DNA of 7,005 nt, taken from positions 1 through 7,005 of IMG/VR virus record IMGVR_UViG_3300045988_027194. One strand, given 5' to 3'. Below, in pieces: positions 2,303 through 7,005 of the stretch. The DNA comes from a virus. Under the pieces are notes generated by a model. That model saw only the letters and a program-made list of their open reading frames with translations. It was not told the DNA's origin and ran no database searches. Both the position numbers and the translations under genes were made by a program. Numbering within the stretch: the stretch's first letter is position 1; each line of letters begins with the position of its first letter.

Positions 2303-3643
2303 ATGAGTGCTTTAAAAAATATGGCTTCGGGTGCTGCTGCTGGTAGTGCTGGTGGTGTTTGGGGTGCTGCTATTGGTGCTGGTGCTGGACTTCTTGGTTC
2401 TTTTCTTGGTGCTGGTTCGCAAAGTGCTACTAATAAAGCTAATTTACAAATAATGCGTGAACAAAACGCATTTAATGCCCATCAGGCAGAATTGCAACGT
2501 TCTTGGCAACAACAAATGCTGAATAAGTATGGTACTGCTTCTGCTCAGGCTGCCCAATATCGTGCTGCTGGCTTAAATCCTCAATTGGCAAATGTTTCTC
2601 CTCAAGCTGTTGGCACTGGTGCTACTGCTCAGGCTGGTGAATCTATTCCACAACAACCTTTGAATTATTCTGGTATTGGTTCTGCCGTTCAAAATGGTCT
2701 TCAGTATTATCAGCAACAACAAAGTATTGATAATCAAAAAGTTGTTCAATATTCAGTTGCAGCCCTTAATGAGACTCAAGGGGCTTTGAATAAGGCTTTA
2801 GAATTACAATCATATCAAAAAGTTGAAGAGAGTAAACAGACTGTTGCCAATTTAAAACTTGCTTATGATTTTAGCGCTAAAACTCTTGCAACACGTGTTC
2901 GTCAACAGTATTTGCAAGAGGATTTGTTAACATGGCAACAAAATGATATGAAATTTGGTTCTATTACTAAGATGTATGATTTGTTCAATATTAAGCCTGA
3001 AATTGTGCAAAATTTACAATCTTCTACTTTCTTTAATTTTGCGTCTGCTTTTCGTGCAGTTGCTGAAGGTAAAATGACTTTGAAAGAGATCCAATATCTA
3101 CCCAAGAAATATGCTATTATGAATACTATGGCTCTTGGTTCTTATCTTAGTGGTAAAGGTTCTTTACTTGGTGGTTTTGCATCTGTTCATAACGCTAATA
3201 CTTTAGATAGAAATACAAAACCACAGTGGCAATTAGATAATTTTACTACCGATTATTTATTAGGTAAGAAAGGTGATGAAGACGCTTTGAAATATATTAG
3301 AGGTGATGTTCGCTTAAAACATTTGTTAGACATTAATATTGCTAATAATGAGTGGTCTTTGAATAAACTTATGGAAGAGCCTTCTTTAATTCGTAATTTA
3401 GGTCGTAAGTATGCTCAAGAGGGTGCTCTACTTGAAAAAGATAACCAATCTTATTGGACTGATAAAAATATAGACCGTGGTATGAAGTTTGTTGATGCTG
3501 CTACTAAAGCTGTTGATACTTACACTGGTCTTAAGTATGTTAATAAACCAGTCAAGGAAAAGCATAACTATAAATATGATTGGAAAAATGGTAGATGGGA
3601 CCATGAAATTTCGGTTGAAACTACTCGCAGTTCTAAAAAATAA
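2303..3643 (+). CDS. DNA pilot / minor capsid protein VP2 (H-like), 446 aa
   Basis: The ATG at 2303 is preferred over the TTG at 2261. The N-terminus is Gly/Ala-rich and hydrophobic (MSALKNMASGAAAGSAGGVWGAAIGAGAGLLGSFLGAGS). It is followed by a Q/N-rich helical region containing AAGLNPQLA, the pattern typical of Microviridae VP2/pilot proteins. Size and position fit that call. Confidence 0.82.
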   Translation: MSALKNMASGAAAGSAGGVWGAAIGAGAGLLGSFLGAGSQSATNKANLQIMREQNAFNAHQAELQRSWQQQMLNKYGTASAQAAQYRAAGLNPQLANVSPQAVGTGATAQAGESIPQQPLNYSGIGSAVQNGLQYYQQQQSIDNQKVVQYSVAALNETQGALNKALELQSYQKVEESKQTVANLKLAYDFSAKTLATRVRQQYLQEDLLTWQQNDMKFGSITKMYDLFNIKPEIVQNLQSSTFFNFASAFRAVAEGKMTLKEIQYLPKKYAIMNTMALGSYLSGKGSLLGGFASVHNANTLDRNTKPQWQLDNFTTDYLLGKKGDEDALKYIRGDVRLKHLLDINIANNEWSLNKLMEEPSLIRNLGRKYAQEGALLEKDNQSYWTDKNIDRGMKFVDAATKAVDTYTGLKYVNKPVKEKHNYKYDWKNGRWDHEISVETTRSSKK

Positions 3644-3647
3644 ATTG

Positions 3648-3686
3648 ATAGGTCAACATATATGTATTATATATATGTTGACCTAT
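3648..3686 (+). terminator. Perfect 16-bp stem / 7-nt loop hairpin starting 5 nt after the VP2 stop; candidate transcription terminator
   Basis: ataggtcaacatatat (3648-3663) pairs perfectly with atatatgttgacctat (3671-3686). A T-run (ctttttattt) follows only about 15 nt downstream, so this is not a textbook intrinsic terminator. Confidence 0.45.
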
Positions 3687-3791
3687 ATATTATATATGTT
3701 CTTTTTATTTCTTCTATGTTCCAACAAATACTTATCTACTAAAAAACGAATGCACCAAAGCACTAAACGAATAAAATACTAATAATAAATG

Positions 3792-3853
3792 ATGTTTAAT
3801 ATAAAGTCTATATAAGTATTTTTCTTATAAATAAAAGACTTTTTATTAAACAT
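3792..3853. other. Long AT-rich imperfect hairpin (18-bp outer stem with 1 mismatch, plus an inner 6-bp stem)
   Basis: atgtttaatataaagtct (3792-3809) pairs with agactttttattaaacat (3836-3853) at 17/18 positions. The inner stem is tataag (3811-3816) with cttata (3824-3829). The hairpin is followed by tttgtattggtttg. Confidence 0.6.
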
Positions 3854-3968
3854 TTTGTATTGGTTTGTCTAATAGAAAAAACCTTTTAGGAAAAGTTGTT
3901 TCATTTATATTTCATTCCTCTTGTTAACTTCCTCTTTGAGAAGTCTCGCCCCTCTTGATAAGGTTGAG

Positions 3969-4001
3969 CGCAAGTGCGATATCGTAATTTCAACACTTGC
4001 G
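3969..4001. other. GC-rich stem-loop (8-bp stem, 17-nt loop) with a nested cgatatcg palindrome; candidate ssDNA origin or recognition hairpin
   Basis: cgcaagtg (3969-3976) pairs with cacttgcg (3994-4001). The loop cgatatcgtaatttcaa contains the 8-bp palindrome cgatatcg (3977-3984). This is the most GC-rich structure in the non-coding region. Confidence 0.55.
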
Positions 4002-4029
4002 TACATTGCTATTTTACTGTTGTAAATTG

Positions 4030-4041
4030 TTTCACGTGAAA
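4030..4041. repeat. Perfect 12-bp palindrome tttcacgtgaaa (CACGTG core); possible protein-binding site
   Basis: The sequence is self-complementary on direct reading. A second 10-bp palindrome, caaatatttg, lies at 4069-4078. Confidence 0.7.
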
Positions 4042-4076
4042 ACAAATGTTAAAACCACAATTTGTTAGCAAATATT

Positions 4077-4104
4077 TGTTAACATAATGTTGCTTATATG
4101 CAGA
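4077..4104 (-). other. dif-like 11-6-11 motif (candidate XerC/XerD target, putative attP)
   Basis: The minus strand reads TCTGCATATAA-GCAACA-TTATGTTAACA. E. coli dif is GGTGCGCATAA-TGTATA-TTATGTTAAAT. The XerD-side arm matches 9/11 (TTATGTTAA exact) and the XerC-side arm 7/11. The motif lies in the only large non-coding region of a genome that encodes no integrase. Confidence 0.4.
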
Positions 4105-4111
4105 TTTTGCT

Positions 4112-4119
4112 TATTTTTG
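4112..4119 (+). promoter_or_regulatory. Bacteroidota-type -7 promoter box TAnnTTTG
   Basis: tatttttg matches TAnnTTTG exactly, 59 nt upstream of the first ATG of the gene string (4178). Only a weak -33-like element (gTTG, 4089-4092) is present at suitable spacing. Confidence 0.35.
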
Positions 4120-4177
4120 CCATCGAAACCAAGCAGATAACTAAGTTTGCCGTTTCTTACTTTTTAATTTTTCTTTT

Positions 4178-4360
4178 ATGTTGAATTTTAAATTGTCTTA
4201 TGCTGATTACTCTTTATTAATTCAGTGTTTGTTGTCTCGTATGGATACTTTATCGGCTTTAATGCGTTCTGTTGCTGATTCTAATCCTAATCTTTATAAA
4301 TTTTATTGTGATGAGTTTGAGGCTGTTCATGCTCTTTATGTTAATGCCCGTAACATTTAA
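4178..4360 (+). CDS. Hypothetical small protein, 60 aa (predicted helical)
   Basis: The ATG is in ttttATG context, and T3 codon bias is as strong as in the structural genes. This is the first ORF after the non-coding region. I recognise no family. Confidence 0.65.
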   Translation: MLNFKLSYADYSLLIQCLLSRMDTLSALMRSVADSNPNLYKFYCDEFEAVHALYVNARNI

Positions 4361-4371
4361 TTTTTTATCTT

Positions 4372-4581
4372 ATGAACAAAGAAATAATTAAAATTATTAT
4401 TAAGGTCGTTATTTATGCTTTAGGACTTATAGCGACATATCTCGGTATTTCTTCGCTTACTTCCTGCTCCTCTTCTCATAATGTAGAGTCTTCTGGAGTT
4501 ACACGTATTTATGTTACCGATACTACTTTTGTCAAACATAACGGTTTCATTCGTTCTAAAAATTATTTGCCTTATGATTAA
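4372..4581 (+). CDS. Predicted small lipoprotein, 69 aa (38-aa mature peptide)
   Basis: The ORF has a basic n-region (K3, K7, K11) and a hydrophobic h-region (VVIYALGLIATYLGI). The lipobox L-T-S-C places Cys32 at 4465-4467, followed by a Ser-rich linker (CSSSHNVESSG). Its stop overlaps the next start (ATGATTAA). Confidence 0.62.
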   Translation: MNKEIIKIIIKVVIYALGLIATYLGISSLTSCSSSHNVESSGVTRIYVTDTTFVKHNGFIRSKNYLPYD

Positions 4582-4756
4582 ATTTTATGGTTTTGTCTAT
4601 TATGTTTCTATAGGTGATACATGTTATGTTGTTAAGGTTAATCATCTTGACGAATTTATGTCACTTATGCATGGTTGCGGCTCTGTTATTATTTCAGATT
4701 TTGTTAAATCTCAGGTTTGTTTTGATTATGTCTACCAGTGGTACAAGAAAATCTAA
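4574..4756 (+). CDS. Hypothetical small protein, 60 aa
   Basis: This is an in-frame ATG within track ORF 4511..4756. Starting at 4574 gives an ATGATTAA start/stop overlap with the lipoprotein gene, instead of a 71-nt overlap. T3 bias is moderate. I recognise no family. Confidence 0.5.
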   Translation: MIKFYGFVYYVSIGDTCYVVKVNHLDEFMSLMHGCGSVIISDFVKSQVCFDYVYQWYKKI

Positions 4757-4958
4757 TTTTGAACGACCTACATATAATATGTATGTGGCTACTTTGACAA
4801 CTCTTCGGGATTTGTCACGTTGTTCTGCTGCCAAAACTGGTATGTGTCCTACTGTATTGCTTGAGATGCGCCGATATATTGAATTAAATTTCAAATTAGA
4901 TTTTCCTTTTCAGGCAGATTCTTTTATTAATTTAATGTATAATACGTTTGCAGATTAG
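4728..4958 (+). CDS. Hypothetical small protein, 76 aa (59 aa if started at ATG 4779)
   Basis: This is the downstream part of track ORF 4614..4958. The N-terminus is basic (MSTSGTRKSNFERP). The ORF ends 4 nt before the VP4 ATG. The start is uncertain: 4728 overlaps the previous ORF by 29 nt, whereas 4779 does not. Confidence 0.5.
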   Translation: MSTSGTRKSNFERPTYNMYVATLTTLRDLSRCSAAKTGMCPTVLLEMRRYIELNFKLDFPFQADSFINLMYNTFAD

Positions 4959-4962
4959 TTTT

Positions 4963-6573
4963 ATGAAGTATTTTATATCTTGTAACAATCCTATTTTGGT
5001 AAATACTCGAAAGGGTTCTTTTTATGTTGCGTGCCATAAGTGTATCCAGTGCCAACTTACACGTAAAAATATAGATACCCTTTCTTTAGATTTGGAATCT
5101 CAGTACAATTCTAAGTATCAGGAATTTCTAACTCTTACTTTTAATGATGATTGTATTCCTTATCTCGATTTTTCATTTTTAGGTTGTGAAAGTGTAGATA
5201 CCGGCAATTTCTTTTCTGTTGATTCTGTTCTTAATTCTTATAAGTTTTCCAATAATGTTAAAAATCAGATGCCCTGTGTGCCTATTTGTTTTGGTAATCG
5301 TAAAAAAAGAATGTTTAACCCTCGGACTAAAAAATACGTTTTAGTTAAAGATAGATATTTTTCTAAACCTTTTTATAGTCCTTTTTATTCTTCTTTTTCT
5401 GTTAAAGATGTTGTTTTATATAATGATAGAGTTGAAAAATATTTTAAAAAATATCCTCGACGTTCTCGTGGTATTCGTAAACTGGGTATTGTTCCGATTC
5501 TTTGGAAAGAAGATTTACAGAGGTTCATCGACCGCCTCCGCCTCTACTTCAAAAGAATGTTTGGTGATAAAGCCACCTTTAAATATTTTGCGGTTGGCGA
5601 GTATGGAACTGAATCCCTACGTCCGCATTGGCATATTTTATTATTCCACAATTCCGATGCAATTCATAGAATTATTACGTCCTGTGACTCCGATAATAAT
5701 AACAAAAATCTTTCTAAGATTTGGCTCTACGGTAATATTTATACAGAGACCACTGACGGGCATATCTCTGACTACCTTTCGGGATATGTTAATTGCCATT
5801 CTCATCTCCCTGAAATTCTTTCGCCTTATCCACAGAAAAGATTTAAAAGTCTCTTCCTTGGAGAAGTCCGCTCGTACTCGTTTGTATCGTCTTGTCTCAA
5901 AGAAAAGCGATTTTCAGAGCTGTCAACTGTTAGCGTTATTAGTAAAAAAGGAGTTAAATCAGATGTTTCCGTTTCCTCTTCGCTTGTCAGTCGATTACTC
6001 CCAAGATATTCAGGTTATGGAGCGCAAAATGTTGATTCAGTTTATGAAACTATCTCCTGCGCTTATACGGTTTTACAGTCAACGGATTTAAATATTTATG
6101 ATGATTGTCAAATTCATGACTTTTTGTTTTTTTTAATTAAAAATCAATTTCATGGTATTTCACGTTTGGATTCTGCCTTGCGAGTTTTGCAATCTTATTG
6201 TTTAGATGTTGCTTTGCCTGCTTATTTTCGTGCTAATACCCTTAACCCTTTATATTCGTTATTTTATGCAGCTAAAAAATTGTATCGGCTTTCAGCCTTG
6301 TTTAATTTACATCCGCTTACCTACTTACGTAATGTTTTTGACTTTGTTTCGTGGTTAAATTATCAATCACTTATCTCTCATTTTAGTTTGCTTGAGATTG
6401 ATTATAATTTTGCTTATGAATATTACTCATGTATTTCTAAACATACTGGTATTTATAATTTAGACGTTTTACGTACACGTTCCCTTTTCCAACGTCAACA
6501 AATTGATGCTGCGATGTCTTGGGATTGCTGTATTAAACATAAAACCGTCTCTGATTCTTATAATGATTATTAA
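4963..6573 (+). CDS. Replication initiation protein VP4 (A-like HUH rolling-circle endonuclease), 536 aa
   Basis: The ATG at 4963 is preferred over the TTG at 4948. An N-terminal Cys cluster reads CHKCIQC. Motif 1 is FLTLTF (5125-5142). The HUH motif lies in GEYGTESLRPHWHILLFH (HWH at 5626-5634). The catalytic double-Tyr motif YLSGYVN (5773-5787) parallels the YVAKYVNK site of phiX174 protein A. Confidence 0.93.
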   Translation: MKYFISCNNPILVNTRKGSFYVACHKCIQCQLTRKNIDTLSLDLESQYNSKYQEFLTLTFNDDCIPYLDFSFLGCESVDTGNFFSVDSVLNSYKFSNNVKNQMPCVPICFGNRKKRMFNPRTKKYVLVKDRYFSKPFYSPFYSSFSVKDVVLYNDRVEKYFKKYPRRSRGIRKLGIVPILWKEDLQRFIDRLRLYFKRMFGDKATFKYFAVGEYGTESLRPHWHILLFHNSDAIHRIITSCDSDNNNKNLSKIWLYGNIYTETTDGHISDYLSGYVNCHSHLPEILSPYPQKRFKSLFLGEVRSYSFVSSCLKEKRFSELSTVSVISKKGVKSDVSVSSSLVSRLLPRYSGYGAQNVDSVYETISCAYTVLQSTDLNIYDDCQIHDFLFFLIKNQFHGISRLDSALRVLQSYCLDVALPAYFRANTLNPLYSLFYAAKKLYRLSALFNLHPLTYLRNVFDFVSWLNYQSLISHFSLLEIDYNFAYEYYSCISKHTGIYNLDVLRTRSLFQRQQIDAAMSWDCCIKHKTVSDSYNDY

Positions 6574-6583
6574 ATATTTTTTT

Positions 6584-7005
6584 ATGAAACGTTCTGATAT
6601 TGTTGGACTTCATCGTATTAAAAATAAGGTTTCTCGCAATTCGTTTGACCTTTCTCATCGACACATGTTTACCGCTCAGATTGGTGAAATTTTGCCTATT
6701 TTTTCTGAGTGGGTTAATCCTGGTGATACCTTAAAACTTGGTTATAATGGTCTTTCTCGTACTGCTCCATTGCAGACTGCTGCATTTACACGTTTAAAGG
6801 AGAATGTACAGTATTTTTTTGTCCCTTTCCAGTCTCTTTGGAAGTATTTCGAACAGGTTGTAACTAACATGACTGAGGGACAAAGTGGTGAAAATATCTC
6901 TAAGTTTGCTGCTTCTGCTTCTACTGCTGATAAACTTGGTACTTCACTTCCTTATATTGGTTATTTGGATTTGATTAAGGTTATTGATGCGCAACTTTCT
7001 GCTTG
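6584..7005 (+). CDS. Major capsid protein VP1 (F-like), N-terminal part; runs off the window end and continues at base 1
   Basis: ATG at 6584 lies 10 nt after the VP4 stop, and the frame is open to the window end. Translation: MKRSDIVGLHRIKNKVSRNSFDLSHRHMFTAQIGEILPIFSEWVNPGDTLKLGYNGLSRTAPLQTAAFTRLKENVQYFFVPFQSLWKYF... This has the typical Microviridae MCP N-terminus (FDLSH, PGD, R..P, YFFVP..LW). The frame (6584 mod 3 = 2) equals that of the 15..1718 ORF after subtracting 6950. Confidence 0.93.
   Translation, partial: MKRSDIVGLHRIKNKVSRNSFDLSHRHMFTAQIGEILPIFSEWVNPGDTLKLGYNGLSRTAPLQTAAFTRLKENVQYFFVPFQSLWKYFEQVVTNMTEGQSGENISKFAASASTADKLGTSLPYIGYLDLIKVIDAQLSA
6951..7005. repeat. Terminal redundancy copy 2 (identical to 1-55)
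   Basis: Exact 55/55 match to bases 1-55. It lies inside the open capsid reading frame that starts at 6584. Confidence 0.9.

Follow-up and report, generated by a model that had tools for sequence, protein, structure and literature searches.

Why would a small single-stranded DNA (ssDNA) virus whose genes lie almost end to end keep 534 nt free of genes? The question is raised by positions 3644–4177 of a 7,005-nt stretch of viral DNA (IMG/VR record IMGVR_UViG_3300045988_027194, hereafter the window). Bases 1–55 of the window equal bases 6951–7005, indicating one circular microvirus genome of 6,950 nt. All genes lie on the + strand. The gaps between them elsewhere measure 4–96 nt, in line with the preliminary description of the sequence, and 3644–4177 is the sole long gap. 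Our reading, to which we assign a probability of about 0.6, is that this stretch serves as the sole non-coding control region of the phage and performs four jobs in a row. A hairpin at 3648–3686 would end transcription of one long unit comprising the small open reading frames (ORFs), VP4, VP1, ORF152 and VP2. The core stem-loops at about 3792–4002 would lie outside the transcript and act as folded ssDNA of the packaged (+) strand, with hairpin 2 and a GGTTT..AAACC element as the site where host enzymes prime the complementary strand, and with hairpin d, which carries TCTTG(A/T)T, as the recognition or nick site for the phage Rep (VP4). A CACGTG box together with CATAATGTTGCTTAT (4030–4097) would constitute attP, through which a host Xer-type tyrosine recombinase inserts the double-stranded replicative form (RF) at a matching chromosomal site. 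A sigma-ABfr promoter (4112–4119) would then restart transcription, and the RNA, starting at about 4125, would open with a two-tier 5' stem-loop extending to 4156. We infer the assignment of replication jobs to individual hairpins from the sequence.

A conserved, non-coding and highly structured region

A search with VP2 yielded 87 homologues (32–100% identity), and a VP1-profile scan of metagenomes added 80 further human-gut genomes. The contigs with VP2 homologues are circular genomes of about 6.7–7.2 kb or concatemers, and every one of them has a gap of 330–1,100 nt after VP2. A profile of the non-coding region matches about 60 of the 80 metagenome relatives, and the region is retained at the same position in more than 70 relatives. 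Between the window and the relative L017, nucleotide identity is 87.8% over 3644–4177, compared with 81.4% for VP2 and 80.6% for VP4. Substitutions in the region are spread evenly over the codon phases (21/18/23, versus 71/29/150 in VP2), and 1–2-nt indels, which break any frame, are frequent. Each of the six frames contains 9–14 stop codons, the longest ORF is 46 aa, and comparison with relatives revealed no conserved ORF in 3644–4177. These results bear out the initial view that the stretch holds no credible ORF. The lack of the T-rich codon bias seen elsewhere, also pointed out at that stage, agrees with the AT skew, which is positive only in 3500–3900.

The stretch outscores all dinucleotide shuffles in folding (z = −5.7 as DNA and −4.6 as RNA). 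Among 28 overlapping 534-nt segments of the genome it is the most structured, with z = −7.7 against +0.9 to −3.0 elsewhere, a clear outlier that justifies its characterization as structure-dense. A scan against Rfam returned three matches to microRNA models, all on the AT-rich hairpin and far under the gathering score (E 0.13–0.88), which were rejected as chance, and a tRNA/tmRNA scan of the sequence found none. Megablast of the genome against GenBank phages gave no match, sharing with GenBank phages being limited to the 3' quarter of the region, and a VP4 search in IMG/VR returned nothing. The 8–13-kb relatives were considered as proviruses, an interpretation ruled out for L017, L022, L048, L055 and L125; these metagenome contigs (7.5–13 kb) are head-to-tail concatemers of the circular genome. 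L090 and L091 have only a 55-nt internal repeat, and L074 and L127 show no self-match.

Five stem-loops with compensatory changes form the core

The core at about 3792–4002 is a set of five stem-loops that recur in fixed order among relatives. The AT-rich hairpin noted previously is present with an imperfect stem, and the GC-rich stem-loop with a nested palindrome was found at 3968–4002. The three CCTCTT(G/T) repeats were likewise confirmed, at 3917, 3931 and 3951; the whole window contains five copies against 1.6 expected, three of them within 41 nt.

3792–3853, + strand: hairpin 2, long, imperfect and AT-rich, first core element (z = −4.0)
3862–3895, + strand: GGTTT...AAACC stem-loop with a conserved tail (GGTTTGTCTnnTAGAAAAACC...GGAAAAGT), near-invariant across the clade
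3927–3944, + strand: hairpin c (ACTTC / GAAGT), second CCTCTT copy in the loop; helix 1 of covariance model R1
3945–3968, + strand: hairpin d (CTCG..CCT / AGG..TGAG), TCTTGAT at 3953–3959 in and beside the loop; helix 2 of R1
3968–4002, + strand: hairpin e (GCGCAAGTG / CACTTGCGT, nested CGATATCG; z = −2.4); helix 3 of R1
3921–4019, + strand: full-length match to R1 (35.5 bits, E ~1e-6)

At the place of hairpin 2, a single long hairpin occurs in 41 of 43 distinct relatives (median −30 kcal/mol, 27 pairs), and its stems are wholly turned over, from TTTAAT/ATTAAA to TTCGGT/ACCGAA, ATCCGTTTT/AAAACGGAT or GTATCTGTTT/AAACAGATAC. The GGTTT..AAACC element is almost invariant and thus displays sequence conservation, not covariation. 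Hairpin c appears in relatives as AATTTTC/GAAAATT, AATTTC/GAAATT or GCTTTTC/GAAAAGT. The stems of hairpin d compensate (CTC..GAG to CAC..GTG, and CCTAC..GTAGG), and hairpin e is built from at least 10 distinct complementary arm pairs.

Since loop-length differences shift the arms, plain MAFFT alignments analysed with RNAalifold were unusable, and a covariance-model alignment was employed instead. The model, R1, comprises hairpins c, d and e and was built from 42 sequences of another subclade, without the window's clade. It gave 72 matches in relatives, all on the + strand. Pairing extends to 92.1% of cells in the alignment so obtained (shuffles, 81.9%), and both partners have changed in 23 of the 28 pairs (shuffles, 13.5 ± 1.6). 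The covariation score is 0.300; shuffled alignments score 0.131, and sliding the partners by 1–3 columns yields no more than 0.075. The observed values were reached by 0 of 500 shuffles. Both-side changes occur in five of seven pairs of hairpin c and six of eight of hairpin d; in hairpin e, 99.6% of cells are paired and seven of eight pairs are compensatory. The raw arm tables of hairpins c, d, e and 2 contain the same arm swaps as the R1 alignment. The preliminary description had proposed examining the aligned non-coding regions of relatives for covariation and had envisaged that relatives might lack the region or leave its paired elements unconserved. Neither case applies: the gap after VP2 is kept in all homologue contigs, and compensatory change is strong in hairpins c, d and e. 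With filters off, R1 gave no significant match in distant groups (L145, L007, L004 and L001), which limits the modelled core to this clade. The core motif CYYTCTTGATAAGRTTRRG was also searched in IMG/VR, and all 15 matches were chance occurrences in coding DNA of unrelated phages.

A hairpin of fixed position and free sequence follows VP2

3648–3686, + strand: 17-bp hairpin, probable terminator, 5 nt past the VP2 stop (DNA fold −13.7 kcal/mol, z = −6.9)
3744–3772, + strand: two AAACGAAT direct repeats around GCACCAAAGCAC, read from the sequence

The hairpin behind VP2, previously reported as a perfect 16-bp stem, is present, with a stem that counts 17 bp. A consensus scan labels it terminator-like. 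It is retained in the close relatives L017, L021, L025 and L026, while unrelated strong hairpins occupy its position in L022, L029, L030, L031 and L032; those of L022, L029 and L030 have a T-rich run behind them. In nearly every relative, a strong but unrelated hairpin lies within 45 nt of the VP2 stop. Behind the last gene, a hairpin fixed in position and free in sequence has the look of a terminator, and the distribution among relatives supports the terminator suggested at the outset. The candidate at 3648–3686 thus probably ends the long transcription unit. A link between this hairpin and the att core described below, both containing AACAT..ATGTT, was considered and rejected, because close relatives differ in the att core but not in the hairpin. 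The AAACGAAT repeats are conserved in the closest relatives only, and ATATGCGAAAACT stands there in other subclades.

A probable attachment site is shared across microvirus lineages

4027–4053, + strand: conserved box around TTTCACGTGAAA (CACGTG palindrome), conserved where capsids are only about 25% identical
4030–4041: palindrome TTTCACGTGAAA
4069–4078: palindrome CAAATATTTG
4083–4097, + strand: att core CATAA-TGTTGC-TTAT(A), CATAATGTTGCTTAT, probable attP for a host Xer-type recombinase
4083–4098, + strand: dif-like CATAA-N6-TTATA
4089–4092, + strand: weak −33 element GTTG, 19-nt spacer to the −7 box
4112–4119, + strand: −7 box TATTTTTG (TAnnTTTG) of a predicted Bacteroidota-type promoter (4089–4119)
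4125–4156, + strand: two-tier leader hairpin, outer stem GAAAC/GTTTC, inner stem GCAGAT/GTTTGC

Every feature named in the preliminary description was located at, or within 1–2 nt of, the place assigned to it. The two short palindromes are present but fold no better than shuffles, and the count of TAnnTTTG in the whole window is near chance (17 against 12.4 expected). Neither exceeds chance by itself, and it is solely their conservation among relatives that makes them significant. The 3'-terminal quarter (4027–4177) shares about 76% nucleotide identity with microviruses whose capsids are about 25% identical. The TTTCACGTGAAA box precedes the att core by 41–53 nt, is located at the attR side of proviruses, and is a candidate site for a dimeric protein, either a regulator or a recombination accessory factor.

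A search with the cassette pattern found it in further viral contigs and at 40 places in bacterial genomes (about 30 in Bacteroidota), three of which are microvirus proviruses. The proviruses L007, L014, L016 and L145 are flanked by a 14–18-nt direct repeat, CATAATACCGGTTA, that corresponds to the homologous ATAAT-N5-TTA motif. In L145, the 18-nt direct repeat TTACCATAATACCGGTTA surrounds a 6.57-kb provirus; the IMG/VR contigs L007, L014 and L016 have a repeat and host flanks identical to those of L145, and the L145 and L007 proviruses have TATTTACCATAATACCGGTTAGAATTAAA as their attB. In L164, a 173-kb Bacteroidaceae contig, a host gene with its terminator is followed after about 65 nt by the motif CATAATGTCCATTAT and then by the promoter, leader hairpin, a small ORF, o69, VP4 and VP1; in this fifth provirus, the junction with the host falls no more than about 65 nt upstream of the motif. 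Circular relatives contain a single copy of the att motif, directly upstream of the promoter. Because the repeats flank the proviruses and the circles have one copy, the crossover in the four related proviruses occurred inside ATAAT-N5-TTA, the positional homologue of CATAATGTTGCTTAT. This evidence comes from relatives with a homologous cassette whose att variant differs from that of the window. The homology of 4083–4097 to these attP sites is well supported, which strengthens the early suggestion of an integration site at the dif-like sequence. A 28-bp dif-like site comprises two 11-bp arms separated by a 6-bp spacer; the outer arms around 4083–4098 are only loosely dif-like and agree poorly with the general bacterial consensus (about 19/28 by our reading).

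The phage encodes no integrase gene, as judged from PHROGs matches and the ORF inventory of the genome. By analogy with known systems, we infer that the recombinase acting on the att core would be XerC/D and that this phage may still be able to integrate. Proviruses of Bacteroidetes microviruses are flanked by dif-like repeats, and integration without an integrase has been proposed for them (PMC3091885); for the enterogokushovirus EC6098, XerC/D-dependent integration via a dif motif in the non-coding region has been proven (PMC7062461). The att findings fit this integrase-free, dif-like mode of integration.

Several observations accompany these data. The IMG/VR contigs L007, L012, L014 and L016 are linear proviruses; they have short stretches of host DNA at their ends and one attB in common, in which ...TATTTAC is followed by CATAATACCGGTTA and then by GAATTAAAAAGAGG... 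Immediately to the left of attL, the host DNA in this group contains the hairpin AGAAAGGGGTGA..TCACCTCTTTCT; L012 yielded no second repeat. L145 (CAVBFV010000077.1) is an 11.3-kb contig binned as Lachnospiraceae, probably wrongly, as its microvirus provirus has a Bacteroidota-type promoter and shares its host flanks with the IMG/VR proviruses. The cassette is mosaic, sharing about 76% identity with SH-CHD8 (window 4027–4177; L001 5789–5935), where local VP1 matches reach only about 25% identity. Among members of the large subclade, L103 has the window-type att (GTTGC spacer), L078 has the ACCGG type, and most have no cassette. Such mosaicism suggests recombinational exchange of lysogeny and expression modules between microvirus lineages.

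A predicted Bacteroidota-type promoter precedes a structured leader

The −7 consensus in Bacteroidota is TAnnTTTG (PMC7366714). The block TTATnTTTGC, which includes the −7 box, is invariant in four aligned sequences (alignment A1), and the TTATnTTTGCnnnCGAAA architecture occurs 40 times in bacterial genomes, about 30 times in Bacteroidota and often ahead of an ORF. The promoter motif is therefore generic to Bacteroidota, and the predicted sigma-ABfr promoter at 4112–4119, first noticed as a TAnnTTTG box, is well supported by the invariant block and by its recurrence ahead of ORFs in Bacteroidota (about 30 genomes). A scan with a sigma-70 model, which is wrong for this host, returned no more promoters than shuffles did. 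The shape of the leader hairpin also occurs in L001, L002, L008, L030, L049 and L164, and its inner stems are compensated (GTGAT/ATCAC, GCATT/AATGC, GCTAT/ATAGC and GCAAA/TTTGC). Most members of the large subclade lack the cassette, and their −7 box lies about 5 nt ahead of the o69 start codon.

The core probably acts as folded single-stranded DNA

An ssDNA phage needs a cis-acting site at which host enzymes start the complementary strand. The core has the traits of such an origin, being non-coding, strand-specific and structured with compensatory change. In relatives, canonical terminators consisting of a hairpin and a T-run stand directly after VP2, for which reason the core is taken as probably untranscribed, and no TAnnTTTG common to relatives was seen by eye inside it. 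As the core lies past the terminator, lacks a shared internal promoter, is strand-specific and occupies the only sizeable non-coding DNA, a role in ssDNA replication is preferred, and the core probably works as folded ssDNA of the packaged (+) strand. The same argument for negative-strand initiation has been made for the conserved intergenic hairpins of very small microviruses (PMC9865509).

The alternative that survives best, although we consider it unlikely, is that the stem-loops at 3792–4002 act as RNA, either as a 3' untranslated region protecting against exonucleases, as the true terminator or as a processed small RNA. Covariation fits RNA equally, the RNA fold is also significant (z = −4.6), hairpins 2 and e contain conserved G.T (G.U) pairs, and the hairpin behind VP2 has no T-run in the window, making read-through plausible. 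However, the core has no Rfam match, it has no conserved −7 box, either internally or just upstream, and in L022, L029 and L030 canonical terminators stand upstream of a core that is still conserved. Moreover, every ssDNA phage requires a cis-acting complementary-strand origin, and this genome offers no other sizeable non-coding region to hold it. Of the roles initially listed for the stretch, the terminator and promoter pair, the integration site and the conserved paired elements were supported, whereas a free-standing small RNA found no support, given that neither a conserved internal promoter nor an Rfam match was detected.

It is considerably less probable that the core is an accessory to integration, either as a folded single-strand attP as in CTX-phi or as a set of accessory-factor sites. 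The core adjoins the att core and lies at the attR end in proviruses, and Krupovic and Forterre observed extra dif-like sequences near provirus ends and themselves drew a parallel to CTX-phi (PMC3091885). Nevertheless, most of the large subclade keeps the core without the CACGTG/att cassette, the promoter abutting the o69 start codon; attL and attR share a simple 14–18-nt identity, as expected of a double-stranded attP x attB exchange; and an inverted second copy of the att core was not seen in the window. A decaying or hidden gene, or an AT-rich spacer with chance hairpins, is hardly credible: ORFs of 20–46 aa exist on both strands and hairpins form easily in AT-rich DNA, but the many stops, the missing codon-phase pattern, the frame-breaking indels, a nucleotide conservation above that of the genes, compensatory changes far over shuffled and slid controls, and the most extreme fold z-score in the genome all contradict it.

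Returning to the control region with its ssDNA core, several points weigh against this interpretation. The tail behind the 3648–3686 stem, ATATTATATA, is AT-rich without a clean T-run, which leaves the termination efficiency uncertain. The −33 element is weak (GTTG, where TTTG would be expected about 19–21 nt upstream), and the second cassette type has ACCGG there. The alignment used for the pair counts was fitted to the R1 structure, which favours pairing. Packaged DNA and any read-through RNA alike have the sense of the + strand, making DNA-level and RNA-level functions of the core inseparable from sequence, and the conserved G.T pairs fit either level alike. No provirus of the window's clade turned up in 185,579 species genomes searched with VP1 patterns. 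In IMG/VR, the window att type CATAATGTTGCTTA gave more than 120 chance matches as a 14-mer, none with the cassette, and a longer pattern gave zero. For the proposed nick site, the likeness to phiX174 amounts to seven contiguous bases, or 11/15 when the C-rich run is included, and the phiX174 origin, which is intragenic, is not known to require a hairpin.

An invariant loop motif may mark a Rep nick site

The motif TCTTG(A/T)T is invariant in 61 aligned relatives, except for TCTAGTT in L031, and occurs on the + strand only at 3919 and 3953. The copy in hairpin d and the phiX174 origin (...CCCCCAACTTG^ATATTAATAAC) have CTTGATA in common, preceded by a C-run. The conserved 30-nt phiX174 origin CAACTTG^ATATTAATAAC... 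is not matched in hairpin d beyond CTTGATA and the C-rich run; the motif may work like a nick site even though its sequence is not that of the phiX174 origin. VP1 offers a control: its 11-mer CAACTTGATAT (1203–1213; codons Q-L-D-I) equals 11 nt of the phiX174 origin. It was rejected as an origin and regarded as a chance match, since relatives vary freely there at synonymous sites. That this copy varies while the motif of hairpin d is fixed makes the conservation specific to the non-coding copy. We tentatively suggest that hairpin d (3945–3968) could be the viral-strand origin, with VP4 nicking within TCTTG^(A/T)T on a non-coding stem-loop and the neighbouring elements forming the complementary-strand origin; because the resemblance to phiX174 is short, we regard this as possible but doubtful. 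Such a nick site on a stem-loop would resemble those of CRESS-DNA viruses and rolling-circle plasmids, whereas that of phiX174 lies inside the rep gene.

Neighbouring genes

6584 across the junction to 1718, + strand: VP1 capsid
1748–2206, + strand: ORF152 (152 aa)
2303–3643, + strand: VP2 pilot protein
4178–4360, 4372–4581, 4511–4756 and 4728–4958, + strand: small ORFs
4963–6573, + strand: VP4 Rep

PHROGs matches are limited to the capsid, pilot protein and Rep, and the non-nested + strand ORFs besides VP1, VP2, VP4 and ORF152 are all at most 114 aa. The 60-aa ORF at 4178–4360, right behind the leader, has a homologue in no relative, including L017, whose VP2 is 83% identical. L017 has a different 51-aa ORF at this position and L164 yet another small ORF; the position looks like a hypervariable accessory-gene slot, or the ORF is no gene. 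The 69-aa ORF at 4372–4581 has a lipoprotein-type signal, MNKEIIKIIIKVVIYALGLIATYLGISSLTSC, with the lipobox LTSC. No other small protein is shared as widely; identity is 50–64% where capsids are about 25% identical. This predicted lipoprotein could have a role in lysis or superinfection exclusion. The second-largest gap, before VP2 (96 nt), contains a 29-nt direct repeat (2207–2278), TTATTCGTGTTTTGCTTTGTGAGCTCTTT / TTATATGTGTTTTGCTTAGAGCTCTTTTT, with 76% identity between copies 43 nt apart.

Comparison with known systems

The Ff phages (M13, f1 and fd) have a non-coding region of about 500 nt after a terminator, in which a row of hairpins comprises the complementary-strand and viral-strand (Rep nick) origins. 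The region described here is alike in being one non-coding region of a circular ssDNA phage with a terminator followed by hairpins. It differs in that the families are unrelated and share no sequence similarity, in that the Ff region has a packaging signal and no attP, and in that the putative att core and predicted main promoter lie within the region here. In phiX174 and G4, a PriA n' hairpin or a primase origin lies in the F–G intergenic region and the viral-strand origin in gene A. These phages belong to the same virus order, have a homologous Rep and share CTTGATA with our motif, although identity is weak beyond 7 nt. In phiX174, a long distance separates the two origins and the nick site lies within a gene, not in a hairpin loop, whereas one non-coding block is proposed to contain both here. 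The ssoA-type single-strand origins of rolling-circle plasmids are non-coding, strand-specific, structured and 150–300 nt long, with compensated stems and conserved loop motifs; no sequence similarity to them was apparent by eye (the RSB and CS-6 motifs were not searched for), and the host phylum differs.

The dif-like sites of BMV1–7 (PMC3091885) and EC6098 (PMC7062461) share with the present site the lack of an integrase gene and a short palindromic ATAA-N6-TTAT core in non-coding DNA, and the related proviruses analysed here are flanked by direct repeats of the core. Here, the host site may not be a true dif, and no provirus with the window's att type was found in the species genomes or IMG/VR. 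Intergenic hairpins are the expected complementary-strand origin in microviruses (PMC9865509, section 3.8). Those of reekeekee- and roodoodooviruses have compensatory substitutions and conserved loops and are proposed to serve in negative-strand initiation (PMC9865509); they number one or two in 3-kb genomes, whereas the present phage has five in a block of about 210 nt, to which a probable terminator, an attP and a promoter are linked. In the literature searched, we found no counterpart of the five-hairpin core with its invariant loop motif. The parts of the control region belong to known kinds, and by comparison the layout resembles that of a filamentous phage to which an attP and a promoter have been added.

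Significance for gut microviruses

Microviruses rank among the most abundant human-gut phages, and to our knowledge their cis-acting signals are essentially unmapped beyond phiX174 and G4. For one large clade comprising more than 70 genomes, the present analysis provides a map at base resolution, covering the candidate terminator, the covarying core, the att core, the predicted promoter and the leader. This map defines a minimal control region for replicating or integrating Bacteroidota vectors and supplies targets for VP4 nicking, for ssDNA-to-RF priming and for deletion work. If the proposed assignment of hairpin d is true, an abundant clade of gut Bacteroidota microviruses would gather both replication origins, attP and the promoter in one exchangeable control region.

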